Assembly: GCA_041690395.1 (NCBI GenBank)
Contig: JAWLHJ010000005.1
Span: forward strand, 96,001-160,000
DNA: 64,000 nucleotides
Direction of reading: 5' to 3'
Origin: Longimicrobiales bacterium
GTDB lineage: Bacteria > Gemmatimonadota > Gemmatimonadetes > Longimicrobiales > Gaopeijiaceae
The position numbers and the translations under genes are program-made. A model generated the notes under the pieces. The model had not been told where the DNA came from and ran no database searches. It worked only from the letters and a program-made list of their open reading frames with translations. Below are positions 5,811-61,684 of the stretch, piece after piece (positions within the stretch are counted from its first letter, which is position 1; the number at the start of each line of letters is the position of its first letter).

Positions 5811-7859
5811 ATGTCCCAGCAGGGTAACACTGGACACGAGGGCACACAGACGGCCCGCAGGGAGTACCGTCCCGGCCAGATCAGCGTGACCGACCACTCC
5901 GTGCGTCAGCGCATCGAGTTCAACGGACTCACCGAAGACGACCTCGGCGTCGTGCAGGCGTGGGCGGCCGAATGCGAGGCCGCCCTCGACGGGCTCATCG
6001 ATCGGTTCTACCAGCACGTCGGCCGGAACCCCGTGACCAAGGGGGTATTGGACGAGCACACGACGGTCGCTCAGCAGCGTCCCCGGATCACGGCGTACCT
6101 CAAGACGTTCTTCACGGGCCGCATCGACGACCGGTACGTCGACTACCGACGCGTCGTCGGTGCACGGCACGACGACATCGACCTCGACTCGAGTTGGTAC
6201 GTCGCGATGTACGAGGTGATTCGCGACGGGCTGGTGCAGGCCGTAAAGGGCTCCGGCGCCACCCCCGAGGAGCTGTCGCGCTTCGGCGAAGCCCTCGGCA
6301 GACTCATCCAGGTGGACATCGGGTTGGTGGTCACGGCGCTGACGAACTCCCGCATGGCCAAGATGCAGGTTCTCCAGGCGGAGATCGAAGGGCAGCTCCA
6401 GGCCATCGGCCGCTCCCAGGCCGCCATCGAGTTCGACCTCGAAGGGACGATCCTGACCGCGAACGCGAACTTCCTGTCGGTCATGGGCTACTCCCTCGAC
6501 GAGATCCGGGGCCAGCACCACAGCCTGTTCGTGGATCCGTCGCACGCCGCGAGTCCCGCGTATTCCCAGTTCTGGGCCAAGCTGAACCGTGGTGAGTTCG
6601 AATCCGGTGAGTTCAAGCGTCTCGGCAAGAACGGCAAGGAGGTCTGGATCCAGGCTTCCTACAACCCGGTCATGGGTGCCGATGGCAAGCCGGCGAAGGT
6701 GGTCAAGTACGCCACCGACATCACCGCGCGCCGGTACGCGACGGACCAGATTTCGGAGACCATCGCGTCCCTGGCGGACGGAGACCTCTCGGCACGGGTG
6801 CCGGACGACGTGACCGGCGACTTCGAGGTGGTGGCGCGGTCCCTCAACGAAGCGATCCGCAGCCTCGATTCGAGCCTCGCCCAGGTGGCGGCGGCGGCCG
6901 AGCAGGTGTCGTCCGCTTCCGAGGAGATCAGCAGCGGAAGCCAGTCCCTCGCGCAGAGCACGTCGGAGCAGGCCAGCACGCTCGAGCAGGTCTCGAGCAG
7001 CCTGCAGGAGATGTCCTCGATGACGCAACAGAACACCTCCAACTCCCACGAGGCGAAGAGCCTGTCGGATGCCGCGAGGCAGTTCTCCGACAAGGGAATG
7101 GACTCGATGCGGAGGCTGTCCGAGGCGATGGATCGCATCAAGGCGTCGTCCGATCAGACCGCCAAGATCGTCAAGACCATCGACGAGATCGCGTTCCAGA
7201 CCAACCTGTTGGCCCTCAACGCTGCCGTCGAAGCGGCGCGTGCGGGTGATGCGGGCAAGGGGTTCGCGGTCGTCGCGGAGGAGGTCCGAAACCTCGCCAT
7301 GCGGAGCGCGGAGGCCGCGAAGGACACGGCTCAACTCATCGAGGAGTCGGTGGGCAACGCCGAGGGTGGCGTCGCCTTGAACCAGGAAGTGATGGGCAAT
7401 CTCGAGGAGATCAGCGCGCAGGTTGGCAAGGTCAGCGAAGTCATGGCGGAGATCTCCGCCGCGTCTGAGCAGCAGTCCCAGGGCATCGAGCAGATCACGA
7501 CGGCGGTCGAACAGATGAACCAGGTGACTCAGCAGTCCGCGGCGAACGCCGAGGAGTCGTCCAGCGCCGCGGAGGAGCTCTCCGGGCAGTCGGAGGAAAT
7601 GCGCTCACTCGTGGGGCGCTTCCGGATTACCGGACAGCACGACGGGCACCAGCCGGGCTACGGAAACGCCCCGGTGTATGGAAACCAGGGTGGCTGGCAG
7701 GGCGACGGCGCCCGCCCCGGGCCCGGGGGGCGTGGGCAGAACCGGCCGGGATCCGAGCCCCCCGCACGTCGAAACGGCGCCACGAAGGGCCAGCCGGCCG
7801 GGGTCGGCGCGAGCCGTCTCTTGCCGTTCGACGACGACGCGGCCCTGGGAGACTTCTGA
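5811..7859 (+). CDS. Soluble methyl-accepting chemotaxis protein with sensor globin + PAS + HAMP + MA domains
   Basis: HemAT-like globin ([30 protein letters not shown]), PAS ([17 protein letters not shown]...WIQASYNPV), signalling hairpin [20 protein letters not shown]; no TM segment. Confidence 0.9.
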
Positions 7860-18579: not shown

Positions 18580-18921
18580 ATGACCATTCACGGAATCAAC
18601 CCGGGTCTCGGCATCCTTGGCGTGCCGTCCACGCCGTCCCGCCAGCAGCGGATCGACGACGCCGGCCAGGGTGACCGCGTGCGGGAGCACCCGGGCACGG
18701 TGGGGACACCGGGCTCCTACCCGGCGAACGGTGTTCGCGGATCCTCCCCGGCGGAGGCTCCCAGAGGGACGGATCCGGCGCTGTGGAGTGTCCTGACCTC
18801 CGAGGAGAGGGCCTTCTTCGCCCGGGCCAGGGAGAGTGGCCCGCTCATGTACGGCCGAGGATCGGATGGCGGCGCCCTCGCTGGCGCGCGCGTCGGCGGC
18901 CGCATCGACGTGAAGGTCTGA
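18580..18921 (+). CDS. Hypothetical flagellar-operon protein between flgC and fliE
   Basis: Tightly packed in the operon; LWSVLTSEERAFF core; C-terminal Y...GGRIDVKV. Confidence 0.7.
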   Translation: MTIHGINPGLGILGVPSTPSRQQRIDDAGQGDRVREHPGTVGTPGSYPANGVRGSSPAEAPRGTDPALWSVLTSEERAFFARARESGPLMYGRGSDGGALAGARVGGRIDVKV

Positions 18922-22408: not shown

Positions 22409-23732
22409 CGGGCTGGTGGCGAAGGTCGAGGCGGTTTCGCGGTTCGCCCAGTACGGGCGAGCCACGCGTGTGGTCGGGCTGGTGGTCGAGGCCGTAGGGG
22501 TCGATGTGGCCATGGGCGAGCTGTGCCGCGTGCGAAGCCTCACCCACGACGCGACCGTGCTCGCGGAAGTGGTGGGGTTTCACGCCGGTGGGGTGTTGCT
22601 CATGCCGCTCGGAGACGTCGACGGCATTCATCCCGGAAGCGCCGTCGAGCCCATGGGGAGATCCTTCGGCCTGCGGGTGGGGCCGGGTTTGTTGGGTCGT
22701 ACGCTGGATGGACTCGGGAACCCCATGGATGGTCTCGGGGACGTGGGGCCGACCGTCCCCGCTCCGCTCCTCGCGGATCCGCCGAATCCTCTCACGCGTC
22801 GCGCGATCGACGAGCCCATGGCCACCGGCGTGCGGGCCATTGACGGACTCCTCACGGTGGGCCGTGGCCAGCGCATTGGGATCTTCGCGGGCAGCGGTGT
22901 CGGGAAGAGCACCCTGCTCGGCATGATCGCCCGGCATGCGCAGGCCGACGTCAACGTGATCGCGTTGCTCGGGGAGCGAGGACGTGAGGTCCAGGAGTTC
23001 ATCCGAAGCTCGCTCGGGCCCGAGGGTCTGTCCCGGTCCGTGCTGGTGGTCGCCACCGGTGATCAGTCGGCTCTCGTCAGGGCGCGGGGCGCCCTCGTGG
23101 CGACCTCCATCGCCGAGTACTTCCGGGACCAGGGCAAGCAGGTCCTCCTCATGGTCGACTCCGTCACCCGGGTGGCGATGGCCTGGCGTGAGATCGGGTT
23201 GGCCGTCGGCGAGCCGCCGACCACCCGTGGGTATCCCCCGTCGGTGTTCGCCCAGCTGCCGCGCCTCCTGGAGCGGGCGGGGAACGCCGAGGTGGGGGGG
23301 ATTACCGGTGTCTATACCGTCCTCGTCGAAGGGGACGACTTCAACGAGCCCGTCGCCGATCATGTCAGGTCGGTCCTGGACGGGCACATCGTGTTGAGCC
23401 GGCGTCTGGCCGGCGCCGGGCACTTTCCGGCCATCGAGGTCACGGAAAGCGCCAGCCGAACCAGGAATCAGGTCGTGGCTCCCGAGCATTGGAACGCGGC
23501 CAACCAGCTCACGTCGCTCGTGGCGGCATACAGGGAGAAGGAGGACTTGATATCCGTGGGCGCGTACCAAGAAGGAACTGACCCGAGGCTCGATGCGGCC
23601 GTGCGGCTGCGGGACGAAACCACGGACTTCCTGTGCCAAGCGCCGGACGAGGTCGCGGACTTCGGAGAGACACATGAGCGCCTGCTCGGCCTGGTGGGCC
23701 GCGTGGAAGCCACGGGACGGACGGGGCGATGA
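22401..23732 (+). CDS. fliI: Flagellar export ATPase FliI
   Basis: GIFAGSGVGKSTL, GERGREV, DSVTR, GYPPSVF, LDGHIVLSR. Confidence 0.97.
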   Translation: MVDGLVAKVEAVSRFAQYGRATRVVGLVVEAVGVDVAMGELCRVRSLTHDATVLAEVVGFHAGGVLLMPLGDVDGIHPGSAVEPMGRSFGLRVGPGLLGRTLDGLGNPMDGLGDVGPTVPAPLLADPPNPLTRRAIDEPMATGVRAIDGLLTVGRGQRIGIFAGSGVGKSTLLGMIARHAQADVNVIALLGERGREVQEFIRSSLGPEGLSRSVLVVATGDQSALVRARGALVATSIAEYFRDQGKQVLLMVDSVTRVAMAWREIGLAVGEPPTTRGYPPSVFAQLPRLLERAGNAEVGGITGVYTVLVEGDDFNEPVADHVRSVLDGHIVLSRRLAGAGHFPAIEVTESASRTRNQVVAPEHWNAANQLTSLVAAYREKEDLISVGAYQEGTDPRLDAAVRLRDETTDFLCQAPDEVADFGETHERLLGLVGRVEATGRTGR

Positions 23733-24202
23733 GTGACCGATTCAAGTTCCGGCTCCAGAGCGTGCTCGAGCTCAAGGAGCAGGGCGAGAAGGACTCGGCG
23801 GTGGGGTTGGCCAGGGCGCGGCGCGATGCCGAGTCCGCGACTCGGGCCAAGGAGATGCTCGAGACGGCTCGAGAGTCCGGGCGCACGGACCTGGCGCGTG
23901 CGCATGGCGCGGGCGGGTCGGTCGGGCACATGCGCAACCTGTCCTACGTCCTGGAGCGGGTGGACGATCAGATCCGGGCCGCCGACGAGGTCTGCAAGGA
24001 GGCGGACGAGGCCGTGGTCGAGAGGCTCGAGCATTACCGTGCGGCTCTGCGTGACCGGAAGACCATCGAAGGGCTGCGGGAGCGGAAGCTCCACCAGTGG
24101 CGGAGCGAGGAAGTACGGTCCGAACAAAAAGCGATGGACGACATCGCCATCACGCGGCACGGGCGTTCCGGATCGGCCGCGAGGTTGGGGGCCGGCGAAT
24201 GA
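23729..24202 (+). CDS. fliJ: Export protein FliJ
   Basis: FKFRLQSVLELK...EQKAMDD; follows fliI. Confidence 0.9.
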   Translation: MSDRFKFRLQSVLELKEQGEKDSAVGLARARRDAESATRAKEMLETARESGRTDLARAHGAGGSVGHMRNLSYVLERVDDQIRAADEVCKEADEAVVERLEHYRAALRDRKTIEGLRERKLHQWRSEEVRSEQKAMDDIAITRHGRSGSAARLGAGE

Positions 24203-24924
24203 GACTCGCCATGATCGGACTCGTATCCCTCATCGTCGGCGTGCTGGGCGGTGCCCTGTTCAGTGGGAACCGCATGAAGAACGCCATCCTGGAGGAGCGG
24301 GCTCAGGTCGCCGCTGACTCCCCCGAGTCTCTCGGCGGGTCGGACGTGGCGAGCGCCGCCCAGGAGAGAGCCGGAGCCGGGTCTCCGAGGGTGGCGCCTT
24401 CGACCGACCGCACGAATCCGGAAGACCGACCGGGCGTCCCGGATCGCGGAGCGGGAGAGGCGTCGACTCCCGGGGCCAGATCCTCGGTGACGACCGCCGC
24501 TCTCGACCCTCCGAGCGGAGAGCGGTCCGGACCTGAGCGCGCGTCGACCGGGACGGGCGCTTCGACCCCCGAGGTCGGCGGCAACGCGGTCTCCGTCGGG
24601 GTGGACGAGGCGGCGACGGGCGCCGCCGGCCCCACGTCGTCGGGTGGTCCCGAAGTCGCGCCCACCGGCACGGAGGTGGCGGCGCCCGCAGGGGTAGTCG
24701 CTGACTCCGCAGCGATCCAGGGCGCCATGCAGCTGGCCCGGATGTTCAGCTCCATGAAGGCCGTCGACGCGGCCGCCGTGCTCCAGGAGCTCACCGACGC
24801 CGAGGTCGATGCGATCCTCCGCCACATGCAGTCACGGCTGGCTGGCCAGATTCTCGGAGAGTTCGAGCCGGCACGTGCGGCGCTGTTGAGCCGCACGGTG
24901 TTGGGAGGCACACCCACGCCATGA
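24199..24924 (+). CDS. MotE/YlxF/FlbB-like protein (N-terminal TM, C-terminal MgtE_N-like domain)
   Basis: LARMFSSMKAVDAAAVLQEL...ILRHMQSRLAGQILGEFEPARAA; in the fliJ-X-fliK position. Confidence 0.75.
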   Translation: MRLAMIGLVSLIVGVLGGALFSGNRMKNAILEERAQVAADSPESLGGSDVASAAQERAGAGSPRVAPSTDRTNPEDRPGVPDRGAGEASTPGARSSVTTAALDPPSGERSGPERASTGTGASTPEVGGNAVSVGVDEAATGAAGPTSSGGPEVAPTGTEVAAPAGVVADSAAIQGAMQLARMFSSMKAVDAAAVLQELTDAEVDAILRHMQSRLAGQILGEFEPARAALLSRTVLGGTPTP

Positions 24925-27092
24925 TCTCCCCCAGTCCGAACGCCGGTGGATTCGGGTTGTCAGGCCCCGGGACCGGCGTGACATCGCGCGGGACCGGTGC
25001 GGGCTTCGTCGCCGAGGCTGGCTTCGAGTCCGGAACCGTACACGAGCGCGAGACCGTGCCGTCCGGAAGCCCGGCGGGTCCGGACTTCGCCGTGGCCTTC
25101 CTGGCCGCCCTCGGTCTCGGAGATCCTGCGGAGCCGGAGGTCGGGACGCCCGGAGAGCTCGAAGAAGGAGCGCGTCCGGCCCTGGAAGATCCGGTGGCCG
25201 GCGGCTACGGGGACGTCGACGTGAGGGTTCGCGTGCGAAAGGCGCTCCTGGCACCCGGGTCCTCCGCGGTGTCCGGCGAGCCCATCAGGGGCCCGGGATC
25301 GCCTGACATCATGGCGAGCCGGGAAGCGCTTCCGAGCGACTCGTCCGTAATCGCGTCGCCGGCTGACACGGCGGGCGGTCGGCCTGCGACCGGCCCCGCC
25401 ATGGGGAGAGAAGGAGCAGCGGCAGACGTCGTGCGCTCTCTACCCCCGGAGCCGGGTGGGGCGGTCGAGCGTGCGTCCGAGGCGAACCCCGTCCCGGTGC
25501 ATACGATGCGCCCCGACGGCGCATCGACCGACGATCGGGCGTCCGCGACACCGGAAGGCGGGTCCCCGCACCTGGCTGGTCCCGATGCGGCGTCACAGAC
25601 CGACTCTGCGGACGCCTCGACGGCGGACGATGGGGATGCGGTGTTGCCCTCTCCCGGACTATCCCAGGGCGACGCCTCGGAGGCTCCGTCGAGCATGTCC
25701 AGCGGGGCGGCTCCGGCCGCGGGAGAAGCGAGCCGGTCCTGGGAGCGATTGGATCCGGTGCTGAAGGGAAAGCTCGAGCGAGTGATCGACCGTATGCGCT
25801 CCGAGCACGGTCATGAGGTGCAGCTGATCGAGGGTTACAGGACCGGCGAGCGCCAGGCTGAGTTGTTCGCTCAGGGGAGAAGCGCTCCCGGGCCGATCGT
25901 GACCTGGACTCGCTCGTCCCGGCATATGGAAGGTCGCGCCGCGGACCTCATGGTGGATGGCAGCTTCGAGCTCGGGACGGGCTACCAGCGACTTCAGGAG
26001 GTGGCCCGTCAGGAGGGCCTCCGCACGCTGGGGCCGCGAGATCCGGGGCATGTCGAGCTGCCCGAAGGGTTGGACGCACCTTCTGCCCGGCGATTCAGGA
26101 CCGACGCGACCTCGGTCGATGCGGTCCCCGGGGCTTCCGTCGAGCGCCAGACGCAGCGTAGGGCGGCGCGTCCCGAGGGAGCGGTCACGACGGTGCCTCG
26201 GACGATGGACAACGCCATGTGGACGTCGAGTCCGGTTGAGCCCGCGGAGGTGGCACGGGTGGCGGAAGTCGCGCGAGTCGCGGAGATCTCTCCTGTGGCG
26301 AAGGTCGCCCGCGTGGCCGATGTCGCTGGATCGGTGTCCCTCTCCGGCGAGGCAGGTCGCCCGCCGGTCTCCAGCGCTGGAACCGAGGTGTCGGCCACGG
26401 CTCCCATGCGTGCCGAGAATCTCGCCAGCGAGCTCCGGGACCCCGCCGTGGATCCCGGATCGTCGCGCCGGCAAGCATCGCGCCCGATCGATCCGCCACC
26501 CGATCCCGACCTCGGGCGAGACGCCGGGCATGGGGTCGCCGACGGGATCCGGACGCCGGACCTCGGGGGTTCGGGAGGGCGCCGTGGTGCCGTGGCTTCC
26601 GTAGCACCTGTCGACGTGCTCGGCCGGGTCGAGCAGGCTCTCGACATGCGCGAGCTCGGCCGCGCCACCCGCCCGGGATTCGTGTCCCTGCGGATCGGTG
26701 ATGGCTTCGGCGGCGGAGACCAGGTGCGGGTCGGGCTCGCCGATCACCGGGTCGATGTGGATCTCGATCTGACGGACCGTCGCGGGTCGGAGGCCATCCG
26801 GGGCCGTGTGGCCGAACTCTCCAGATCACTGGGAGAGCGGGGCTTGAGCCTGGGTGCCCTACGGGTCTCCTCGCCGGACCCGTCCAGCGGGTGGGCCCAG
26901 GGTCTTCGATCGTCGGCCGATGGCGTGGCGGAGTTGATGAACACCTGGCTGTCCCAGCCGAGCCAGGACCGGGGCCGCGACCCCAACGGAGGCGCACGCT
27001 CACACGATGGCCGGACGCCCCAGGACGAGAGCGGCTCGAGCCGCTCACACTCGAACTCGGACAAGGAAGGGCGGCATGCCCACAAGCATTGA
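24921..27092 (+). CDS. fliK: Hook-length control protein FliK with internal M15 peptidase domain
   Basis: Between the ylxF-like gene and flgD; low-complexity Pro/Ala/Ser N-terminus; FliK_C-like C-terminus (VSLRI...VRVGL..RVDVDL...ELSRSLGERGL); internal EGYRT..RQAELFAQGR...SRHMEGRAAD...DPGHVEL. Confidence 0.78.
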   Translation: MISPSPNAGGFGLSGPGTGVTSRGTGAGFVAEAGFESGTVHERETVPSGSPAGPDFAVAFLAALGLGDPAEPEVGTPGELEEGARPALEDPVAGGYGDVDVRVRVRKALLAPGSSAVSGEPIRGPGSPDIMASREALPSDSSVIASPADTAGGRPATGPAMGREGAAADVVRSLPPEPGGAVERASEANPVPVHTMRPDGASTDDRASATPEGGSPHLAGPDAASQTDSADASTADDGDAVLPSPGLSQGDASEAPSSMSSGAAPAAGEASRSWERLDPVLKGKLERVIDRMRSEHGHEVQLIEGYRTGERQAELFAQGRSAPGPIVTWTRSSRHMEGRAADLMVDGSFELGTGYQRLQEVARQEGLRTLGPRDPGHVELPEGLDAPSARRFRTDATSVDAVPGASVERQTQRRAARPEGAVTTVPRTMDNAMWTSSPVEPAEVARVAEVARVAEISPVAKVARVADVAGSVSLSGEAGRPPVSSAGTEVSATAPMRAENLASELRDPAVDPGSSRRQASRPIDPPPDPDLGRDAGHGVADGIRTPDLGGSGGRRGAVASVAPVDVLGRVEQALDMRELGRATRPGFVSLRIGDGFGGGDQVRVGLADHRVDVDLDLTDRRGSEAIRGRVAELSRSLGERGLSLGALRVSSPDPSSGWAQGLRSSADGVAELMNTWLSQPSQDRGRDPNGGARSHDGRTPQDESGSSRSHSNSDKEGRHAHKH

Positions 27093-27756
27093 AGCATCGC
27101 AGCCCCCCGTCCTCCTGCCGTCTCGCATGACGGTGGGGGGAGCGCAGGGGAACCCCACGCTCGGGAAGCAGGAGTTCCTGCAACTCCTGGTAGCCCAGCT
27201 GAAGCATCAGGACCCCATGAATCCCAGCAACCCCGAGGACATGGCGGCTCAGCTCGCTCAGTTCTCGTCGGTCGAACAGCTCATCGGCATCAATGAGCAG
27301 CTGGGTACGCAGGCCTCCTCCGCGGAGGTCATGGCGTCGTCGCTGAACAACAGCACCGCGGTCGGCGTCATCGGAAAGAACGTGCTCACCCCCGGGGACC
27401 AGGTCGCCATCGACGACCCTGACGGCGGAGCAGTGACCGTCGTGGTCGGGGAGGGAGGAGGTCGCGGCGTCCTGACGCTCTTCGATGAGGGGGGAAACCG
27501 GGTCGGTGCCCGTGATCTCGGCACCCTGGACGGTGGTCGGCAGGACATCGACCTCGGGAGTGCCGCCGACGGGCTCCCGCCAGGGGACTACCGATACGAG
27601 GTCAGCGTCCAGGACGCTGACCAGTCTTCGGTCGAAGTCCGCACGCTCATGCGCGCCCACATCGACGGCGTGCGCTACGGCTCGAACGGCCCGCAGCTGC
27701 TTTCCGGGGATCTGGAGATCCCGATGGCCGACGTGATCGAAATCATCCAGCAGTAA
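27076..27756 (+). CDS. flgD: Hook capping protein FlgD
   Basis: LGKQEFLQLLVAQLKHQDPMNP...AQLAQFSSVEQL; C-terminal Ig-like domain. Confidence 0.93.
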   Translation: MPTSIEASQPPVLLPSRMTVGGAQGNPTLGKQEFLQLLVAQLKHQDPMNPSNPEDMAAQLAQFSSVEQLIGINEQLGTQASSAEVMASSLNNSTAVGVIGKNVLTPGDQVAIDDPDGGAVTVVVGEGGGRGVLTLFDEGGNRVGARDLGTLDGGRQDIDLGSAADGLPPGDYRYEVSVQDADQSSVEVRTLMRAHIDGVRYGSNGPQLLSGDLEIPMADVIEIIQQ

Positions 27757-27784: not shown

Positions 27785-29032
27785 ATGATGCGCTCACTCT
27801 TCGCCGGTGTGTCCGGCTTGCGGAATCATCAGATCCGCATGGATGTCATCGGGAACAACATCGCCAACGTGAACACCACGGGGTACAAAGCCAGTCGCGT
27901 GACCTTCGAGGAGGCCTTCGCCCAGCAGCTGCAGGGAGCGAGTCGGCCTCCGGGCGACTCCGGAAACGTCTCGGGTGGCGTGAATCCGGTGCAGGTCGGG
28001 TTGGGCATGAACATCGGCTCCATCGACCTGCTGTTCACGCAGGGGAACCTCGAGACGACGGGTGTCACCACGGATCTGGCGATTCAGGGGGATTCCTTCT
28101 TCGTCGCTTCCGATGGCTCTCAGAACTTCTTCACCCGCTCCGGGAATTTCCAGCTGGATGCGAACGGGCGCATGGTGGCTTCCACGAACGGCTTCATCGT
28201 GCAGGGAAAGATCGCGGAAGGCGGCGTGCTGACCGACACGATTCAGGATATCCGGCTTCCGTTCGGGCAGAAGTCGGCCGCTCGGGCGACGGAGACGGTC
28301 TCCTTCGCCGGTAACCTCGACGCGGAGGCCGACATCGGCGCCACGCGCGAGACGACGATCACGGTGTTCGATGCGATGGGCGCTCGTGACGAGATGACCA
28401 TCAGCTTCACGAAGACCAGCGGCACGACGTGGGACTATTCGGTGGCCTCGGGGGATGGTACGACGGTCTCCGGAGACACGGGTACGCTCACCTTCGACAA
28501 TCAGGGCCGGCTGACCGCGCCCGTGCCGACCGACCCCTTCGTCTTCACGCCGGCGTCGGGCGCCGAAGACGTGTCCGTGGACCTGCGCTTCGGAACCGCC
28601 GGCTCCATTGAAGGGCTCTCCCAGTTCGCCGCGCCGAGCACGGCGGTGGTTCGTGACCAGGACGGGTATACGATGGGTGACCTCGAGCGGATTTCCATCG
28701 ACCAGACCGGTACCGTGACCGGCGCGTTCACGAACGGGGTGACCCTGACGTTGGCGCAGATCGTGCTCGCCGACTTCAACAACCCGGCGGGCCTCATCCG
28801 GAGCGGTGACAACATGTACCAGGTGTCCGCCAACTCCGGATCGCCGGTCCTCGGCTTCTCCGGTGAGGGCAGCCAGTCCTCCATCACGTCGGGTGCTCTC
28901 GAGATGTCGAACGTCGATCTCGCGCAGGAGTTCACGGGCATGATCACCGCCCAGCGAGGCTTCCAGTCCAACGCGCGAGTGATCACCACCGCGGACGAGA
29001 TGCTGCAGGAGGTCGTGACGCTGAAGCGATGA
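27785..29032 (+). CDS. flgE: Hook protein FlgE
   Basis: MMRSLFAGVSGL...DVIGNNIANVNTTGYK...LEMSNVDLAQEFTGMITAQRGFQSNARVI. Confidence 0.96.
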   Translation: MMRSLFAGVSGLRNHQIRMDVIGNNIANVNTTGYKASRVTFEEAFAQQLQGASRPPGDSGNVSGGVNPVQVGLGMNIGSIDLLFTQGNLETTGVTTDLAIQGDSFFVASDGSQNFFTRSGNFQLDANGRMVASTNGFIVQGKIAEGGVLTDTIQDIRLPFGQKSAARATETVSFAGNLDAEADIGATRETTITVFDAMGARDEMTISFTKTSGTTWDYSVASGDGTTVSGDTGTLTFDNQGRLTAPVPTDPFVFTPASGAEDVSVDLRFGTAGSIEGLSQFAAPSTAVVRDQDGYTMGDLERISIDQTGTVTGAFTNGVTLTLAQIVLADFNNPAGLIRSGDNMYQVSANSGSPVLGFSGEGSQSSITSGALEMSNVDLAQEFTGMITAQRGFQSNARVITTADEMLQEVVTLKR

Positions 29033-30930: not shown

Positions 30931-31344
30931 ATGGATGAGCGAAACGAAGAAGCACTGGACGAACGAGCACTCGAGGCCGCCATGGAGGCGGAGCTGAACG
31001 ACGGGGGCGAGGAGAGCCCGGCCGCCGAGTTCGGTGAATTCCGCCGCGATGGGGTGAGCGGGCAGCCCGCGGCGCTGAACATGCTCTATGACCTCCATAT
31101 GCCGGTGGCCATCGAGCTGGGCAGGACCCGTATGTCGGTGCAGGAGATCCTGACTCTCGGTCGGGGATCCGTGATCCAGCTGGACCGCCTCGCCGGAGAG
31201 CCGGTGGACGTGTTCGTGGGTGATCGGCGGTTCGCCGAGGGAGAGGTGGTCGTCGTGGGGGAGCAGTTCGGCGTGCGGATCACCCGGATTCTGAGCACGA
31301 GCGTGGAGAACGCCGCGGAGTCCGCGTCGGAGTCCGCGGCTTGA
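30931..31344 (+). CDS. fliN: Motor switch protein FliN
   Basis: IELGRTRMSVQEILTLGRGSVIQLDRLAGEPVD...GEVVVV..FGVRIT. Confidence 0.95.
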   Translation: MDERNEEALDERALEAAMEAELNDGGEESPAAEFGEFRRDGVSGQPAALNMLYDLHMPVAIELGRTRMSVQEILTLGRGSVIQLDRLAGEPVDVFVGDRRFAEGEVVVVGEQFGVRITRILSTSVENAAESASESAA

Positions 31345-31346
31345 CC

Positions 31347-32534
31347 ATGATGACCTGGGTCACGGTGGTTTCGGCGCTGGCCTTCGTCTTGGGTGTCGTG
31401 GCCGTGGCCGCTCACTGGGCTCGCCGCTTCGGGACACGCTCCGGCGTCACGACCCCTCAGGGCTCCATCGAGGTGGTTTCGCGGGTGGGGCTCGCGCCCA
31501 AGCAGGGCGTGGCGACGGTGAAATTCGGTGGTCGCTTCCTACTCGTCTCCTATGGCGAAGGTGGCGTCCGTGCGCTCGCGGAAATGGATGCCGCGGCGTG
31601 TGATGCGGGCGACGAAATCGACGCTGGTGCGGGGGCGCATGGCCCGGTGAGGAGCGGGTTGGCCACGCTCCCTGGACAGGCCGGTGCCCTGATTTCCCTC
31701 GCGCGGCGCCGGGTCGCGGGCCTGCGGGTGCTCCCGGCCGTCCTGATGATGGGAACTCTCCTGGTCTCGGCGCCCTCGGTGGACGCACAGAGCGCTGCCG
31801 AGGCACCGGTCGCCGCGGTCGGTGAGGTCGCCCGGGTGCCCGCCGGCGACGGATCCGCGGGCCCGCAGATGAGCGTGAGCCTCGGTGGGCAGGAAGAGGA
31901 GGGGCGGTTGGAGCTGAGCGGTCCCGTGGGGACGGTCCTGTTCATCGGGTTCATGACGCTGATCCCGACGCTCCTTCTCCTCATGACGAGCTTCACGCGG
32001 ATCCTCATCGTGCTGCACCTGCTGAAGCAGGCGCTGGGTACACAGACGGCGCCCCCCGCGCACCTTCTCGCGGCGATGGCGTTGCTCCTCACGGGCTTCG
32101 TCATGGCTCCGACCTTCGAGCAGATCCAGGTGTCCGCGGTGGAACCGTGGATGAATGGAGAGACGGACGAGCTCCAGATGCTCGAGACGGCGTCGGGACC
32201 CATGCGTGACTTCATGCTGTCGCATACTCGAGAGCAGGACCTGGCGTCCTTCAGCGAGATGAGCGCCGGTCCGGTGCCGGAAACCATCGACGACGTACCG
32301 CTCGTCGTCGTGACCTCGGCGTTCGTCACGAGCGAGCTCACCAGCGCATTCCAGATGGGCTTTGCGCTTTTCCTTCCGTTCGTCGTGATCGACATCGTCG
32401 TGGCGTCCGTGTTGATGAGCATGGGCATGTTCATGCTCCCTCCGGTGATGGTGTCACTCCCTTTCAAGCTCCTCCTGTTCGTGCTCGTCGATGGATGGTC
32501 GCTGATCATGAACAGCCTGGTGAGGAGCTTCTGA
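31347..32534 (+). CDS. fliP: Fused FliO-FliP export gate protein
   Basis: N-terminal TM + FliO domain (IEVVSRVGLAPKQGVATVKFGGRFLLVSYGEGGVRAL) in frame with FliP (MTSFTRI, LGTQTAPP, FQMGF, GMFMLPP, LPFKLLLFVLVDGW). Confidence 0.9.
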   Translation: MMTWVTVVSALAFVLGVVAVAAHWARRFGTRSGVTTPQGSIEVVSRVGLAPKQGVATVKFGGRFLLVSYGEGGVRALAEMDAAACDAGDEIDAGAGAHGPVRSGLATLPGQAGALISLARRRVAGLRVLPAVLMMGTLLVSAPSVDAQSAAEAPVAAVGEVARVPAGDGSAGPQMSVSLGGQEEEGRLELSGPVGTVLFIGFMTLIPTLLLLMTSFTRILIVLHLLKQALGTQTAPPAHLLAAMALLLTGFVMAPTFEQIQVSAVEPWMNGETDELQMLETASGPMRDFMLSHTREQDLASFSEMSAGPVPETIDDVPLVVVTSAFVTSELTSAFQMGFALFLPFVVIDIVVASVLMSMGMFMLPPVMVSLPFKLLLFVLVDGWSLIMNSLVRSF

Positions 32535-42908: not shown

Positions 42909-44026
42909 TACGCTGGACGGGGGAAACCGCAGCGGGTGTCGAGGAAGCGCCCCTGAGCAACGCGACGCTGCGACGGATGGAGGCCTGGATGCATGTGGTG
43001 GCTGCCATCGTGACGCTCGCTCTTCTGGTCACGGCGGTAGCCGTGGGCGCGCAGGAGACGCGCATCAGCGATCTGACCGTGGGCGGGGGCGAGGTTCCCG
43101 TCCGACTCGTCGGATACGGCCTGGTCGTCGGGCTCGACGGCACGGGTGACCGGGTGGTCGGGGGGTTCTCCTCGGGCCATACCGTGCGCTCCGTCGCCAA
43201 CTTGCTCAGGCGGTTCGACGTCGAGGTTCCGGAGAACATGCTCCGGACCCGGAACGTCGCGGCAGTGCTGGTGACGGCGGAGGTATCGCCGTACCTGCGT
43301 CCTGGAGGGCGCTTCGACATCCATGTCTCCTCCTTGGGAGATGCCCAATCCCTTCGGGGCGGGGTCCTGTGGATCACGCCGCTGCAGAGCGGACCTTCGA
43401 TCGATCCCGTCGCGTCGGCGCAGGGACCGCTGTTGATCAGCGAAGGTTCGGCGAGCAGCAATCGATACGCCGTCGAGACCACGGCGGCCCTGCCGGGAGG
43501 TGGGATCCTGGAGCAGCCCCTCCCCCGACTGGAGTTCGGCGTCGCCCCGGTGCTGCACCTCCGGCGTCCCGATCTCGTCACGGCGTCACGCATCGCGGAG
43601 GCGATCAACCTGAGCGTGGCCCCGGGTGTCGCGGTGGTCGAAGATCCGGGCTCCATATCCCTCACGCTGGCGGATGGCATGGAGCCGTGGGATGCGGCGC
43701 GCCTTGCCGAGATCGGCAATCTCCCGGTCCAGCCGGGCCGCTCCGCGCGCGTCGTGATCGACAGTCGGTCGGGGACCGTCATCGCCGGGGGCGACATCAC
43801 CATCGGTGAGGCGGTGGTCAGCTACGGGGAGCTGACGCTCGCCATTGGCGCATCGGCGCCCGCGGATCCTCTGGTCTTCGGAGACCTTCGCATGAATCCC
43901 GGCGCTTCGGTGCAGGACATCGCCGCCGCCCTCCACGGCGTCGCAGCGCGGCCGGAAGCCATCGCGGCGGTGTTCGAGTCGCTGCGCCAGGTCGGCGCGC
44001 TCACGGCGGAGGTGACCCTCCGATGA
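42905..44026 (+). CDS. flgI: P-ring protein FlgI
   Basis: LVGYGLVVGLDGTGD; RNVAAVLVTA; VSSLGDAQSLRGG; true start may be downstream. Confidence 0.94.
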   Translation: MIRWTGETAAGVEEAPLSNATLRRMEAWMHVVAAIVTLALLVTAVAVGAQETRISDLTVGGGEVPVRLVGYGLVVGLDGTGDRVVGGFSSGHTVRSVANLLRRFDVEVPENMLRTRNVAAVLVTAEVSPYLRPGGRFDIHVSSLGDAQSLRGGVLWITPLQSGPSIDPVASAQGPLLISEGSASSNRYAVETTAALPGGGILEQPLPRLEFGVAPVLHLRRPDLVTASRIAEAINLSVAPGVAVVEDPGSISLTLADGMEPWDAARLAEIGNLPVQPGRSARVVIDSRSGTVIAGGDITIGEAVVSYGELTLAIGASAPADPLVFGDLRMNPGASVQDIAAALHGVAARPEAIAAVFESLRQVGALTAEVTLR

Positions 44027-44406
44027 CCGGTGCGATCGGCGGGAGCGGCGGACGCGCCGCCATCGGCCCTACCGCACCGGGACCCGGTGGAGATGGGCTG
44101 CAGGCGCTGAAGGATGGTCGGGTGGAGGGAGACGCCCAGCGGCTTCGAACGGCCACCCAACTCCTCGAGGGCACCTTCTATCAGGAGGTCTTCAAGGCCA
44201 TGCGCGCCACGGTGCCAGAGGGGGGGATGGTGTCCGGCGGATCCGGTGAGGAGATCTTCACGGGGATGCTGGATCAGACCGTCGCCGACGCGGCCGCGGC
44301 TCGAAACGATGGTGGTCTCGGGAGCGCTCTGTACCGGTACCTGACACAACGCATCCATGGCGGTGCTTCACCGACCCCGGGGCCGCACGGAGAAGGCGCC
44401 CCGTGA
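44023..44406 (+). CDS. flgJ: Rod-capping FlgJ, rod-binding domain only
   Basis: LRTATQLLEGTFYQEVFKAMRATVP.GG...EEIFTGMLD; 127 aa, no muramidase domain. Confidence 0.88.
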   Translation: MTGAIGGSGGRAAIGPTAPGPGGDGLQALKDGRVEGDAQRLRTATQLLEGTFYQEVFKAMRATVPEGGMVSGGSGEEIFTGMLDQTVADAAAARNDGGLGSALYRYLTQRIHGGASPTPGPHGEGAP

Positions 44407-54535: not shown

Positions 54536-54659
54536 CGTCGACATGGGTGGGGAGCCTTCGTCGGACTCGAGCTGGCGGAGGGTCGGCCGGGACTCCACCG
54601 ATGAGGCGTCCGTCCCACCGGGTGCGGGGCGGGAACAGCAAGCAAGGAGGGGGACACAT

Positions 54660-57600
54660 ATGGAGGCCATCGCTTCGGTTCAGGGGCTTGCGACCGGAAT
54701 CGATTTTCGGGATCTCGTCGACCAGATCGTGGCTGCGGAGTCCCGGCCCGTCCAGGTGATGGAGAGCCGAAAGCTGACGCTCGACGCGAGAGAGGCCGCC
54801 TGGACGGACTTCCAGCGGCGCATCCGCACCTTGGACGACCGCGCCGACGCCCTCGGTCGCGGCACCGTATTCGATGCCTTCCGCACGAGCGTGGCCGGCG
54901 GTTCCGAAGCGCTCTCCGCGTCGGCCCGGTCCGGTGCGTCACCCGGCACGTACAACGTGGACGTTCTGCAGGTCGCCACGAGGGAGAAGGTCGGGAGTGA
55001 CGTGTTCGGCTCTCTCGACGAGGCCCTCGGCTTTTCCGGAACTTTCGTCGTCGGTGGACGAGGGGTGGAGATCTCGGCGGAAGATACCCTGCGGGATGTC
55101 GCCGGCGCGATCAACGCGGTCAACGCCGGGGCCTCCGCTTCGCGCGTGACGGCGTCACTCGTGGGGTCGGCGGACGCCGGTTACCGCATCGTGCTCACGG
55201 CGGACGCATCGGGAGAGACGGGGGTACGGCTCGCGGACGGTTCGTCCGGGGTGCTGCGGTCCCTGGGCTATCTCGACGGCGGCATGTCCATACGGCATCA
55301 GACGTCCGACGGCGCGACCAGCGACGCGTTCGCTTCGTCCACGGCCGCTGTCGGGAGCCAGATCGGCCTGGCTTCGCCGCCGGCCGGCACGGTGGGGGTT
55401 GGTTCCCTGAGCGTGGCCCTCGACCTGGCCAGCAACGGCCTGGAAGACATCGCCGATGCCATCAACGCTGCTGCGGCGAGCGCGGGAAGTCCCATCGAGG
55501 CCCGGATCGTCTCGGAGACGGGGCTCGACGGGAGGACCGGCCGGCGTCTGGATGTAAGTGGCACCACATCCTTCACGGATGCGAACGGGGTTCTGGAGAC
55601 CCTGGGAATTCTGGAGTCCGGCCGGTCGGCGGTGGCCCAGCAGCTCAGCGGTGCCACCTTCACCGACGGAGACGGGGTGACTCCGGCGACGGCAGGCACC
55701 TTGATCACCGACTTGTGGCAGGACGGCGCCAGCGCCGGCGTCCAGGTCGGGGATACGCTGTCGATCAGTGGGATGCGCGGCGACGGTACGACGTTCGCGC
55801 TCTCCTTCGAGGTAGGCGCCACCAGCACCTATCAGGATCTGGTCGACGCGCTCAACTCCGAGACCGACGCGCTCGGCGTGGGCCCGCGCACCGCGACTGC
55901 GGCCCTGGCCGACGGCGCCATCGTCGTCACCGACGACGTTGGTGGGTACAGTCGACTCGCATTGACGGTCGTTTCCAACAACGAAGGTGGCGGCAGACTC
56001 GATTTCGGAGCCTTCGCCGTCACGACGACGGGGCGAGCCCGTGAGATCACCGCCGGCCGGGACGCCCAGGTGCAGGTCGACGGTGTCTTCCACAGCCGAT
56101 CGTCCAACACAGTCGACGACGTCATTCCCGGAGTGACCCTCTCGCTGACCCAGACCTCGGAGAGCTCGACCGTGGTGAGCGTAGAGCGGGACGTGGATGC
56201 CATCGTGTCCGAGATCGAGGCACTGTTCGAAGCCATGGACGGCATCTCCGAGTTCGTGTCGAGACAGTTTTCGGGTGCGGGAGCGACGGAGGGGGGGACG
56301 CGTCCGCCGCTATCCGGCGAGAACCTCATCCGGTCCATGCGCGGGCGGCTGAGGGGCGCCCTGGAATCCGCGTTCGCCGCGACACAGACGCAGTTCCGTA
56401 CGCTCTCGGAGCTCGGCATCGAGATCAACCGGCGGGGTACGTACGACATCGACACGTCGGCGTTGCGAGACGCCGTGGAATCCGATCCCGCCGGCGTGCA
56501 GAGGATCTTCTCCTCGCACGGCGCGGGCAGCGTGTCTTCCCTGCGATACGTGTCGGCCTCGGCCGCCACCGTCCCCGGCACCTACGATGTCGTCATCACG
56601 AATCCGGCAACGCGGGCCGAGGCCACCGGGGCGGGCTTCGCTGGGGCTTACGTGGACGACGGCGTGCCGGACCAGGTGACGATCACGGACACGGGGACGG
56701 GATCGTCCTACTCCGCCGTCCTGGCCGATGGCATGAGCCTCGCGGACATCGTCCAGGCGCTGAACGACGAGCTCGGGACGGCTACGCGCAGGGAACTCCA
56801 CGCCACGTCGATCCTACGGGCGGACGGGGCCGGGACGGAGGCCGCCGAACCCACGGCGCTCGCGGACCTTCACGACGAAGCCGGTACGAACCTCGGCGTC
56901 GCGGACGGTGACGTGCTGACCATCGCGGGCACGCGCACGGACGGGACCAGCTTCTTCCGCGAGTGGACGGTCTCGAGCGCGGCGACGCAGACGCTCGGGG
57001 ATCTTCGTGCCCAGATCTCCGCGGCCGTCGGCTCCGACGTCGAGATCGACATCGCGGATGGCATGCTGACGGCCATGGCAGCCGAACCGGGACGGAGTGC
57101 TTTCACGCTCTCCGTCTCCTCGGACAATGCCGGCGGAGGAACCCTTGCGCTCGGGGCGTTCGACGTAGCGGTCGAGGGGCGCGGCGCGTCGACGATCGTC
57201 GCGGCGGACGTGGACGGTCAGCTGTCCTTGCGTCACGAAGACTACGGTGCCTCGGAGGGCTTCGACATCACGTACACGCCCGGTGGAACGGATGGTACCG
57301 GGGCGCTCGGGCTCGCCGCCGGAGCGTATGCCGGGAGCGACGTCTCGGGGACCATCGGTGGTCAAGCGGCCACGGGAGTGGGCCAAGTCCTGACGGGGGG
57401 TGAAGGCTCTCCGGCGGAAGGGCTGGCGGTGACGTTCCGTGGGTCCGGAGACGGGGCCGTGGGATCGGTCTCGTACTCTCGAGGCATCGCATCGTCACTG
57501 GAGGGCGTGACCGGCGGCCTCCTCAGCGGCGAGAGCGGGTCGATTCAAGCCATCGTCGAAGGGCTCGATACTCAGAAGCGCCGCATCGACGATCGCATCG

Positions 57601-57746
57601 AGGCGTTCGAGTCACGGCTCGACCTGAGAGCCCAGAATCTGATGAAGCGGTTCAGCGCGCTGGAGGAAGCGATGGCGCAGGCACAGCAACAGGCGGCTTG
57701 GCTACAGGCCCAGCTGGGATCTCTGCTCGGATCACCGAGCGCTTGA
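54660..57746 (+). CDS. fliD: Filament cap protein FliD, very large (about 1028 aa)
   Basis: GLATGIDF..VDQIVAAE; SSNTVDDVIPGVTL; LSELGI; C-terminal RFSALEEAMAQ coiled coil. Confidence 0.93.
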   Translation: MEAIASVQGLATGIDFRDLVDQIVAAESRPVQVMESRKLTLDAREAAWTDFQRRIRTLDDRADALGRGTVFDAFRTSVAGGSEALSASARSGASPGTYNVDVLQVATREKVGSDVFGSLDEALGFSGTFVVGGRGVEISAEDTLRDVAGAINAVNAGASASRVTASLVGSADAGYRIVLTADASGETGVRLADGSSGVLRSLGYLDGGMSIRHQTSDGATSDAFASSTAAVGSQIGLASPPAGTVGVGSLSVALDLASNGLEDIADAINAAAASAGSPIEARIVSETGLDGRTGRRLDVSGTTSFTDANGVLETLGILESGRSAVAQQLSGATFTDGDGVTPATAGTLITDLWQDGASAGVQVGDTLSISGMRGDGTTFALSFEVGATSTYQDLVDALNSETDALGVGPRTATAALADGAIVVTDDVGGYSRLALTVVSNNEGGGRLDFGAFAVTTTGRAREITAGRDAQVQVDGVFHSRSSNTVDDVIPGVTLSLTQTSESSTVVSVERDVDAIVSEIEALFEAMDGISEFVSRQFSGAGATEGGTRPPLSGENLIRSMRGRLRGALESAFAATQTQFRTLSELGIEINRRGTYDIDTSALRDAVESDPAGVQRIFSSHGAGSVSSLRYVSASAATVPGTYDVVITNPATRAEATGAGFAGAYVDDGVPDQVTITDTGTGSSYSAVLADGMSLADIVQALNDELGTATRRELHATSILRADGAGTEAAEPTALADLHDEAGTNLGVADGDVLTIAGTRTDGTSFFREWTVSSAATQTLGDLRAQISAAVGSDVEIDIADGMLTAMAAEPGRSAFTLSVSSDNAGGGTLALGAFDVAVEGRGASTIVAADVDGQLSLRHEDYGASEGFDITYTPGGTDGTGALGLAAGAYAGSDVSGTIGGQAATGVGQVLTGGEGSPAEGLAVTFRGSGDGAVGSVSYSRGIASSLEGVTGGLLSGESGSIQAIVEGLDTQKRRIDDRIEAFESRLDLRAQNLMKRFSALEEAMAQAQQQAAWLQAQLGSLLGSPSA

Positions 57747-59419: not shown

Positions 59420-60159
59420 TGTCGGCACCCGCCGATCGGCCCGGGTTGGCGCTCCACGATTCGGAGGCCACGCTGCGTCAGGTGGAGTCCGCCCTGGACG
59501 AGTTCAGCGGGACCGACGGCCGTCTGAGCTTCGAAGAGATCGTGACGGATCCGGACGGTCCCCCGGCGGGGCTCCACGACCTGGTCAAGCTGCTCATCGG
59601 GACCTACACGGAGATCATGGCCGTCATCGAGAGCCTGCGGCAGAGTCGTGGCCTCCTCGAACAGGCGGCGATGGATCGACTGAAGAGCACCCACGAGAAG
59701 CTCGCCGAGGTATCGTCCGCCACGGAGCTGGCGGCCGCCGGCATCTTGGACGGCCTCGACCGTGCGCTCGGCCTCGTGGACGAGCTCTCGTCGGACGAGG
59801 CCGGCGGCTCGGCCTCGTCCGATGGCTCGGACCCCGGCGCACGGCGCAGCGAGACCGCAGACACGCTGCGCGACGAGCTGCATCAGATCATGAATCTGCT
59901 TCAGTTCCAGGATATCACGTCCCAGCAGCTCGGTTATGCCTCCGGGGTCCTCATGGACATCGAAGAGCGCATGATGAGGCTGGTACGCGTCTTCGACCTC
60001 CAGAAGATGGGGATGGACGAGCTTCGGGGGGTCCTGGAGGAACGAGGTCCGGTGGCGGGACCCCGGACCCAGGATCCGGAGACGTGCGATCCCGACGCGT
60101 CGACACTGGGGGCCGATGAGCGGCAGGCGCTCGCCGACGAGGTCTTCACCTCGTCGTGA
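59419..60159 (+). CDS. cheZ: CheZ-like CheY-P phosphatase
   Basis: ATELAAAGILD...IMNLLQFQDITSQQL (DxxxQ motif); C-terminal QALADEVF; coupled to cheY. Confidence 0.78.
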   Translation: MSAPADRPGLALHDSEATLRQVESALDEFSGTDGRLSFEEIVTDPDGPPAGLHDLVKLLIGTYTEIMAVIESLRQSRGLLEQAAMDRLKSTHEKLAEVSSATELAAAGILDGLDRALGLVDELSSDEAGGSASSDGSDPGARRSETADTLRDELHQIMNLLQFQDITSQQLGYASGVLMDIEERMMRLVRVFDLQKMGMDELRGVLEERGPVAGPRTQDPETCDPDASTLGADERQALADEVFTSS

Positions 60160-61684
60160 ACGGGCGGGCCGAGCCCCTCCGGGTGGTGAGGGCTCCGGAC
60201 AGGTCGTGGGCGGCGAGCAGGGCCTCCAGAGCTGTCGCCTCGTCGGCAGTCCCGAAGGCGCCGGCGTACACCCGGAAGCGCGGACCTGCGTCCGGAGTGG
60301 AGTCCCAGAGCACGTAGCCGTCGATGCCCGACGCGCTCAGCCGGTCCACATGGCCCGCCGCGTCAGCCGGGGTATCCCAGACGCCCATCTCATAGGCCAG
60401 TTGGGATCGGCGCACCAGCCAGGCGTCGGCAGCTTCCCCTGACCATCGTTCGAGATCCGCCTTGGCCGCTTCGGCTCGAATCGAGTCTCCATAGCTGCCG
60501 GCGAGCACACGGTGGAACGTGTTCCCACCGACGTCGACGGGTGTCACGACCACCAGGACGGTGTCCCCTCGAGCCATGACCCGTTCCGCGTGCCGGCGCG
60601 CGGTGCCGCGATCCCGATACGACGCCAGGGCGATGGAGAAGGTCGGCGTCCCGTCGAACGTTCCCCGCGCGTCGGGCTCGATGGGGCGCGCGTCGGCGGC
60701 GTCCACGGCCTCGGTAGGTTCGACCATGCTGTCCCGTGCAGGTGCGGTGGCATCCGGGACGTGGGGTAGACCCGAGCCGTCTGCGTCCCCGGAGGGACCG
60801 CTCCACCACCCCGTCCAGGCCAGGACACCCACCACCACGGCTGCGAGGGCGGCGGCATGCACCAGCGACCGCCCGAAGTCTTGGGAGCCTGAGACGCGGA
60901 GGCGCTTCCACCAGGGCTTCGGCGGCGTCCCGGTCCATCCGGCGCCGTCCGGACGATCCGAGTCGCCGAAAGCCGCGCTGCCCTCGGTGGACACGGCACC
61001 CCACGTCTCGCGCGGGGGCGACGGCCGGGCGAACGGATCCATCGCCAGCGGGTCCAGCAGGTCTCCCTCGTGTGTGTGGGTGACAGCGTCGTCGGAGGAC
61101 CCGGGCCCGGCTTCGGGCGGTGCCACGATCGCGCGTAACTTGTCCGCAGGAACGACGTCGCGAGGAAGCGTGTCTTCCGGGGACGCGATGCCAATGACGT
61201 CGTCGGCGCGGGTCGCTACGAGCGACGCCCATGCAGCGTCGGCTGGCGTGAACACGACGAGCGTGACCCCAGCCTGAACGAACGTTTCGCAGAGCCGATG
61301 CCAGCGCTCCGACTTCAAGAGGAGGCTGGGGTCGCTCAGCGCGCGTCCCGGCGGGATGAGGGAGAAGCGCTCCCCGCCGACATCCTGAACAGCCTCCTGG
61401 ACCGTGGACGCACCCTCGAGGGTTTCGGCCAGCCCTGGCCCTTCGTGGGTGCCCAGCCAGAGACCCAAGCCCGGAGCCCGGAAAGAGGCATCGACGAGCA
61501 CCACACTCGTGCGGGTGCCACTCCAGGCGCGGGCCAAGGCGGTGGCAATGCTCGTGCCCCACCCCTCGCTCCACCCGCGCGCCGAGACGGACAACATCAC
61601 GATCCTGCCGGGACCCCCATCCGGACCTGCCAGTCGCGGAGGGTCCGAAGGGTCGAAAGGTCCCGTGCCGTCGCGGGGGATCAT
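60146..61684 (-). CDS. Degenerate CpsD/MinD-like P-loop domain + TM + periplasmic SPOR-like domains
   Basis: IVMLSVS..GWGTSIATALARAW..VVLVDASFRAPGL; TM AAALAAVVVGVLAW; FSIALASYRD..FHRVLAGSY and FRVYAGAFGTADEA. Confidence 0.65.
   Translation of the reverse strand: MIPRDGTGPFDPSDPPRLAGPDGGPGRIVMLSVSARGWSEGWGTSIATALARAWSGTRTSVVLVDASFRAPGLGLWLGTHEGPGLAETLEGASTVQEAVQDVGGERFSLIPPGRALSDPSLLLKSERWHRLCETFVQAGVTLVVFTPADAAWASLVATRADDVIGIASPEDTLPRDVVPADKLRAIVAPPEAGPGSSDDAVTHTHEGDLLDPLAMDPFARPSPPRETWGAVSTEGSAAFGDSDRPDGAGWTGTPPKPWWKRLRVSGSQDFGRSLVHAAALAAVVVGVLAWTGWWSGPSGDADGSGLPHVPDATAPARDSMVEPTEAVDAADARPIEPDARGTFDGTPTFSIALASYRDRGTARRHAERVMARGDTVLVVVTPVDVGGNTFHRVLAGSYGDSIRAEAAKADLERWSGEAADAWLVRRSQLAYEMGVWDTPADAAGHVDRLSASGIDGYVLWDSTPDAGPRFRVYAGAFGTADEATALEALLAAHDLSGALTTRRGSARPFTTR

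Follow-up and report, generated by a model that had tools for sequence, protein, structure and literature searches.

How does a growing flagellar rod pass through the peptidoglycan when its cap protein, FlgJ, carries no wall hydrolase? The matter is described as unsettled (PMC13584718). It is raised anew by a flagellar cluster of a Longimicrobiales bacterium in the family Gaopeijiaceae of the Gemmatimonadota. The cluster lies in a stretch of 64,000 nucleotides, positions 96,001 to 160,000 of the forward strand of contig JAWLHJ010000005.1 (assembly GCA_041690395.1), which we call the window and to which the coordinates below refer unless a locus number precedes them. FlgJ is short in this cluster, and the hook-length ruler FliK contains a predicted zinc peptidase domain of family M15. 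A first-pass annotation, made from the nucleotide letters alone, had suggested that the secreted ruler doubles as the wall-opening enzyme. Our analysis favors a milder form of this idea, with a probability of about 0.58: the M15 domain would ride the flagellar export channel and cut the wall near the growing rod as a helper, not as an essential pore-maker.

Identity of the hook-length ruler

The gene follows fliF-G-H-I-J and a ylxF-like gene and precedes flgD and flgE, in a flagellar cluster that is complete by Pfam (the scan took in 62 window proteins and 12 more later). It had been read as lying in the fliK slot with a FliK_C-like end, and both points are borne out. An AlphaFold2 model of residues 265-665, built from 121 aligned sequences, contains two confident domains, mostly with a predicted local distance difference test score (pLDDT) >90, and an unstructured chain between them. 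The best Foldseek match (rank 1) of the C-terminal domain, which has a pLDDT of 86-96, is Salmonella FliK_C (2RRL, E 1.7e-4), and rank 4 is the switch domain of PscP (5CUK). A FliK_C profile has its sole match in the 98%-complete genome at this gene (E 4.7e-21; next best 0.06), which is also the top PF02120 match of the genome. Profile searches of the genome turned up no additional fliK and no additional flagellar cluster. The gene is the genome's only FliK: the two findings that had been named as refuting its identity, a separate true fliK elsewhere and the absence of a FliK_C fold, were seen neither in the genome profile search nor by Foldseek.

Matches to Pfam are faint. The whole 723-amino acid (aa) protein has no match at E<=0.001, and the cut-out C-terminal domain matches Flg_hook (PF02120) at E 0.021 and 15.1 bits, under the curated cut-off of 29.8. 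Two homologues, P0034 and P0068, exceed this cut-off with 33.9 bits, as does none of 10 further relatives (best 29.6 bits). The proposed HMMER/InterPro check, made here with Pfam, gives a divided answer, in which VanY and Flg_hook match only below their cut-offs and Peptidase_M15_4 does not match. Because the scores lie below the cut-offs, the domain identities rest on profile and fold searches, and routine annotation largely misses the fusion.

The M15 peptidase domain

By sequence and model, the inserted domain is an M15 zinc peptidase with an intact site, and its nearest relatives are Ply500 and LysB4. The signature first noticed here, an arginine followed by SxHxxGxAxD and DxxH with all zinc ligands, is intact: R307, S333, H335, D342, D374, and H377 are present and do not vary in any of 121 homologues (a set made up of the query with the top 120 of 315 matches and biased towards the M15 domain). 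Among M15 structures, the family profile matches only Ply500 (2VO9, E 4.7e-12) and LysB4 (6AKV, E 2.7e-11). Foldseek places the RB49 L-Ala-D-Glu peptidase (23RI, E 9.1e-4) at rank 2 and VanX (1R44, E 1.2e-3) at rank 3; together with 2RRL, these matches recover both the M15 and the FliK_C fold, as the first-pass annotation had anticipated. Endolysin families of the PHROG collection match the domain with E values of up to 9e-15. The cut-out domain also matches VanY (E 3.4e-4), M15_2, and M15_3, all under the Pfam M15 cut-offs. It has no match to Peptidase_M15_4 (PF13539) at E<=1, whereas stand-alone relatives do match this family. In FliK-borne M15 domains, the loop that precedes DxxH, in the PF13539 region, is shorter than in stand-alone relatives, and a VTWT is invariant. 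A fold predicted from the single sequence of the domain was poor (pLDDT 57) and was set aside.

In LysB4, zinc is bound by H80, D87, and H132, and activity depends on R50 and D129 (PMC6354061). The equivalent residues here are H335, D342, and H377 for zinc, with R307 and D374; H335, D342, and R307 are matched by direct alignment, and H377 and D374 by motif and fold. Specificity for the L-Ala-D-Glu bond is likely, as assigned from the nearest relatives. Stand-alone M15 peptidases of several kinds (L189-L196) also occur in Gemmatimonadota with and without flagella, some of them with likely signal peptides.

Conservation and selection

The fusion is conserved in relatives; a lack of such conservation had been named as a refutation. 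A genome scan confirmed 195 loci, and the best 80 were examined; Gemmatimonadota appears in 74 of their record titles, and the other 6 titles give no taxon. The M15 open reading frame (ORF) adjoins flagellar genes on at least one side in 80/80 loci and includes FliK_C in 74, while 5 end at contig ends and 1 stops early. The strict M15 motif is found in 79/80 loci, in 146/150 cluster representatives, and in 20/20 intact copies of the unbiased genome sample described below. These representatives are the best 150 of 281 clusters (50% identity, E<=1e-30) returned by a full-library search, and FliK_C is present in 131 of them. In the ESM Atlas, Gemmatimonadota clusters score 0.77, which is no more than a lead.

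Selection was gauged by the ratio of nonsynonymous to synonymous polymorphism (pN/pS, uncorrected) in two clades of 13 and 9 genes. The M15 domain has ratios of 0.25 and 0.20, compared with 0.19 and 0.35 in FliK_C, and the flanks lie at 0.52-0.77. Judged from these gene sequences, the M15 domain is under purifying selection comparable to that of FliK_C. One homologue, P0064, is labelled Nannocystis sp.; this label alone could stem from faulty binning or from gene transfer beyond the phylum.

Distribution among flagellated Gemmatimonadota

A survey took in 201 Gemmatimonadota genomes, each at least 90% complete (one, G153, is counted only in the 201-genome totals). FlgD and FlgJ were both found in the same 53 genomes, and one cluster occurs among them in three natural states: with FlgJ fused to a soluble lytic transglycosylase (SLT) domain, with FliK-M15, or with neither. 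Intact FliK-M15 is present in 20/53, all with a short FlgJ. Two of them, the present genome included, belong to its family; another comes from a second family in the same order, and the remaining 17 come from a family designated f5. Within the present family, flagellated genomes make up 2/25 of those sampled. Flagella have been reported in G. phototrophica and G. groenlandica (PMC10581226, whose available text does not mention FliK).

The second state comprises 9/53 genomes, all of family f10, in which FlgJ is longer by about 180 residues and M15 is absent (six full FliKs read); the long FlgJ has an SLT domain in 3/3 scanned by Pfam. The FlgJ of family f10 thus joins a rod-binding domain to a soluble lytic transglycosylase, not to a glucosaminidase or peptidase (L115:1148-2029, L118:934-1812, L136:1321-2208), and the FlgE and FliK of this family are about 1000 aa.

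The third state is made up of 22 genomes of family f4, G085, in which the domain is lost, and G136, in which its ligands are lost. For f4, 19 FliKs were read through to FliK_C, 2 end at contig ends, and 1 was not seen. This family has kept full sets of rod, ring, hook, and filament genes and has no FlgJ hydrolase and no M15. The predicted co-occurrence of the fusion with a muramidase-less FlgJ is therefore found in one direction only: 20/20 fusions accompany a short FlgJ and 0/9 a hydrolase FlgJ, but 24/44 genomes with a short FlgJ have no intact M15.

The Val-Ala-x repeat

Downstream of the M15 domain lies a Val-Ala-x repeat, which is present in 20/20 FliKs with intact M15 and in 0/29 other FliKs. 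Since the M15 group itself served to define the pattern, the informative cases are the two losses. These are a natural decay in G136 (L167:4830-6551) and a natural loss of the M15 module in G085 (L165:14420-16357), both without the repeat. The M15 domain and the repeat are gained and lost together. Among the best 150 cluster representatives, 122 have the repeat. It is unstructured in the model (pLDDT <50), which gives no support to the idea that it acts as a pseudo-substrate; our guess is that it serves as a pause signal or as a safety catch against the cutting of wall precursors in the cytoplasm. Total ruler length was also considered as a separator of the groups and was discarded, with median ORFs of 618 aa with M15 and 598 aa without and with uncertain starts.

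Evolutionary history

In flagellar-protein trees rooted on f10, f4 is sister to one M15-bearing lineage with a support of 99, and G085 and G136 nest within that lineage as separate losses. One of these trees has 81 rows, loci with too few of four genes being left out. In an RpoB tree of 26 genomes, f4 instead joins f5 with a support of 99. Forcing the f4+f5 grouping on the flagellar data was rejected by the approximately unbiased (AU) test (p-AU 0.005, LG+G4), with RpoB and flagellar rows that are not identical. On the simplest reading, the M15 domain was gained once, and the whole cluster then moved sideways once between orders. The flagellar and RpoB trees suggest sideways movement of the flagellar cluster between Gemmatimonadota orders.

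FlgJ and wall hydrolases of the genome

FlgJ is rod-binding only, as originally described. PF10135 is its sole match, and 16 residues follow the rod-binding domain. This separate 127-aa FlgJ is the only PF10135 match in the genome, and M15 is not on the rod-binding chain. The window has no lytic transglycosylase, glucosaminidase, M23 peptidase, or amidase gene; the earlier statement that a lytic transglycosylase is missing from it stands, since the four SLT matches of the genome all lie on other contigs. M23 and amidase matches on the window's contig are >300 kb away, and PF01832 has no match in the genome. A 363-aa SLT (contig C2) was examined as a flagellum-specific enzyme and rejected, its relatives being found in 181/201 genomes, mostly non-flagellated.

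Proposed mechanism

The N-terminal segment of the ruler likely carries a flagellar export signal, by analogy with Salmonella FliK (10.1101/2020.03.25.007062). It has no Sec-type hydrophobic or signal-peptide-like stretch (among 12-residue windows that begin within the first 30 aa, the top mean hydropathy is 0.78), which leaves the flagellar channel as the only evident route of FliK to the wall. In Salmonella, FliK is exported N-terminus first. It belongs there to the early substrates, and in rod and ring mutants a FliK-beta-lactamase fusion reaches the periplasm and confers resistance (10.1101/2024.03.11.584431). There is precedent for the enzyme as well, as the M15 L-Ala-D-Glu endopeptidase ChiX opens the cell's own wall for secretion (PMC5778951).

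We propose the following sequence of events. While the rod is still short, the M15 domain would emerge under the FlgJ cap, where it would fold and take up zinc. The folded domain would then cut the L-Ala-D-Glu bond and loosen the mesh locally, making way for rod and rings. Once the hook is growing, this chain would pass unfolded as a ruler, and FliK_C would switch FlhB.

A more elaborate version, which we hold tentatively and at somewhat less than even odds, keeps FliK_C at the export gate while the tethered module of M15 and repeat is pushed from the rod tip. The module would drill the wall and later serve as plain tape, with the repeat as pause or safety catch. The rod is 35 nm long (PMC6972891), and a linker of 113 aa, fully extended to 42 nm, clears it. 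The linker between M15 and FliK_C is 183 aa in this FliK and at least 113 aa in 74/74 loci and 129/131 representatives, which lends slight support to the helper reading.

Several observations weigh against a wall-cutting role at the rod. Of the short-FlgJ genomes, 24/44 are without intact M15, which means that a short FlgJ does not demand FliK-M15 and that the link is not one-to-one. In the 22 f4 genomes, no SLT lies near the cluster among the matches listed (150/170). No M23, Amidase_3, or glucosaminidase gene lies inside the cluster in the 15/22 checked, other hydrolase families not having been searched genome-wide. The 0/9 exclusion between M15 and hydrolase FlgJ comes from a single clade and is not independent evidence. 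The genome itself has 4 SLT genes, all on other contigs, and 10 M23 genes. Unlinked transglycosylases (PleA, SltF, and BB0259) serve short-FlgJ flagella elsewhere (PMC8517470, PMC13584718), and the lack of such an enzyme in the window therefore carries little weight. As for the enzyme, the HMMER alignments to Ply500 and LysB4 do not reach D374 and H377, and the shortened loop before DxxH means that specificity may differ. At 0.2 nm per residue (10.1101/2020.03.25.007062), the shortest linkers would span ~23 nm, which is marginal.

The claim that the ruler doubles as the wall-opening enzyme thus survives in reduced form. The intact site, the conserved fusion, and its absence from all 9 genomes with a hydrolase FlgJ speak for it, and the short-FlgJ genomes without M15 reduce it to that of an optional helper. 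In Salmonella, assembly benefits from hydrolysis by FlgJ but does not require it, and B. subtilis seems to rely on pores already present (PMC13584718); an optional helper fits these cases better than an essential drill. The best reading is that the ruler's M15 domain is an optional helper rather than a required replacement for FlgJ activity.

Alternative explanations

The strongest alternative, although an unlikely one, is that the peptidase acts on the cell's own wall for another job: it might create space for the P-ring or stators, anchor or free the basal body, or remodel the flagellated pole. The conservation data (active site in 121/121, purifying selection) suit it equally, as do the full rod-to-filament gene set of f4 with neither FlgJ hydrolase nor M15 and the Salmonella rods that cross the wall without FlgJ activity (PMC13584718). 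FliK exits at the rod tip, however, which sets the enzyme free at the place and time at which the rod reaches the wall. Between M15 and f4 clusters, a comparison that was not systematic brought to notice no co-varying ring or stator gene.

An improbable alternative is an extracellular lysin, in which FliK released via the hook cuts foreign peptidoglycan or loose muropeptides, much as protease-bearing flagellins act outside the cell. The nearest relatives of the domain are phage endolysins, and flagellins with an inserted metallopeptidase reportedly exist (flagellinolysin). The domain is strongly conserved, however, with no wall-binding domain, immunity-like neighbor, or rapid divergence seen. 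FliK is secreted in few copies per flagellum, which fits a local cut and not a diffusing weapon. Secretion does occur during hook growth (10.1101/2020.03.25.007062, PMC6972891), but only intermittently (10.1101/2020.03.25.007062), which again suggests a local cut.

Equally doubtful is a mechanical or timing device, in which the M15 domain and repeat set export speed and guard against early switching by folding at the tip or gripping the wall, with cutting incidental. Such a device would account for a repeat that is present exactly with the intact domain (20/20 versus 0/29), and the export rate of Salmonella FliK governs switching (10.1101/2024.03.11.584431, 10.1101/2020.03.25.007062). Yet the general base D374 and the oxyanion residue R307, which serve catalysis and not folding, are invariant, and the decayed G136 copy lacks both the metal ligands and the repeat.

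Least probable is a neutral passenger left by an old phage-lysin insertion in a ruler region that accepts any sequence: FliK tolerates insertions (10.1101/2020.03.25.007062, PMC6972891) and the domain is lost or decayed in 2/22 sampled M15-lineage genomes, but the active site is invariant across the 281 clusters while the flanks are saturated, and pN/pS largely refutes this explanation.

Features of the locus

The coordinates are collected in Table 1. The stop of the ylxF/MotE-like gene overlaps the start of fliK (ATGA). Its MgtE_N-like match has an E of 0.0013, under the Pfam cut-off, and ylxF/MotE is presumably the right name for it.

Table 1. Positions of fliK, its parts, and neighboring flagellar genes in the window.
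Feature	Position	Strand	Basis
fliK, 723 aa, hook-length ruler with inserted M15 peptidase module	24921..27092	+	ORF translation
Low-complexity N-terminal ruler segment, aa 1-272	24921..25736	+	
Predicted M15 (LAS-type) zinc peptidase domain, aa 273-381	25737..26063	+	Profile, Foldseek, motif
Catalytic codons R307, H335, D342, D374, H377	25839, 25923, 25944, 26040, 26049	+	
Val-Ala-x repeat, about aa 440-472	26238..26336	+	Pattern comparison
FliK_C / T3S4 export-switch domain, aa 564-651	26610..26873	+	Foldseek
fliJ	23729..24202	+	PF02050
ylxF/MotE-like gene, own start codon uncertain	24097..24924	+	MgtE_N-like, same slot in relatives
flgD, hook cap, true start likely near 27079	27007..27756	+	PF03963, PF13861
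flgE, hook subunit	27785..29032	+	PF07559, PF06429, PF00460
flgJ, single-domain rod cap, 127 aa, no hydrolase domain	44023..44406	+	PF10135 only

Other genes of the window deserve mention. FliO and FliP form one ORF (31341-32534, +), with Pfam matches to FliO at aa 28-95 and to FliP at aa 203-393; the same slot in related clusters holds ORFs of similar length, about 365-430 aa. Between flgC and fliE lies a 113-aa ORF (18580-18921, +) with no Pfam match, which is present in the same slot of many related clusters and is possibly an unnamed flagellar component. The filament cap FliD (54543-57746, +) is unusually long at 1067 aa and has two FliD_C stretches. A chemoreceptor with protoglobin, PAS, HAMP, and MCP domains (5811-7859, +) is likely an oxygen sensor. 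One protein, encoded where the flagellar cluster ends (60146-61684, -), combines SPOR peptidoglycan-binding domains with a P-loop kinase region that is Wzc/CpsD-like. A promoter scan gave results at chance level, and among sequencing runs no RNA holder was listed.

Comparison with known systems

The fusion of FliK with M15 is apparently undescribed in print. The first-pass annotation knew of no example of the arrangement, and our literature search, whose coverage left out most subscription papers and supplements, found no description of a FliK-peptidase fusion. The available main text of a 2026 survey of flagellar genes mentions neither Gemmatimonad- names nor a peptidase (PMC13277936).

As a ruler, the protein resembles Salmonella FliK and YscP/PscP in its place between fliJ and flgD, its long low-complexity N-terminal part, its C-terminal T3S4 fold, and its single copy. 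It differs from Salmonella FliK, for which the available text describes no enzyme domain (10.1101/2020.03.25.007062, PMC6972891), by a 109-aa predicted zinc peptidase and a Val-Ala-x repeat within the ruler. As a peptidase, it shares with Ply500, LysB4, the RB49 peptidase, and ChiX the set of Arg, SxHxxGxAxD, and DxxH, a QGRT-PG-VT segment, and the fold. We take CwlK to be a further M15 L-alanyl-D-glutamate endopeptidase of this type. Unlike these endopeptidases, the FliK-borne domain sits in a flagellar export substrate without a signal peptide, holin, or wall-binding domain.

Among flagellar systems, one of the two closest parallels is the dual-domain FlgJ (the Salmonella glucosaminidase, the peptidase type, and the FlgJ-SLT of f10), in which a wall hydrolase is likewise fused to a rod-stage export substrate. 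Here a transient ruler takes the place of the resident rod cap as carrier, and the cut is predicted to fall in the stem peptide and not in the glycan. SltF, PleA, and BB0259 also cut the wall alongside a short FlgJ, but these are separate, glycan-cutting enzymes, whereas the present one is part of FliK. Flagellinolysin, the other closest parallel, likewise places a metallopeptidase within the variable middle of a flagellar export substrate; it belongs to a many-copy subunit of the external filament, and the M15 domain to a low-copy early substrate with a peptidase of the peptidoglycan type. If the proposed role is correct, FliK reaches and works at the wall before hook growth, and the ruler delivers catalytic cargo to a precise spot. 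On the more elaborate version, with the module tethered at the rod tip, it would be a fourth route through the wall beside hydrolase-bearing FlgJ, stand-alone transglycosylases, and the finding of existing pores.

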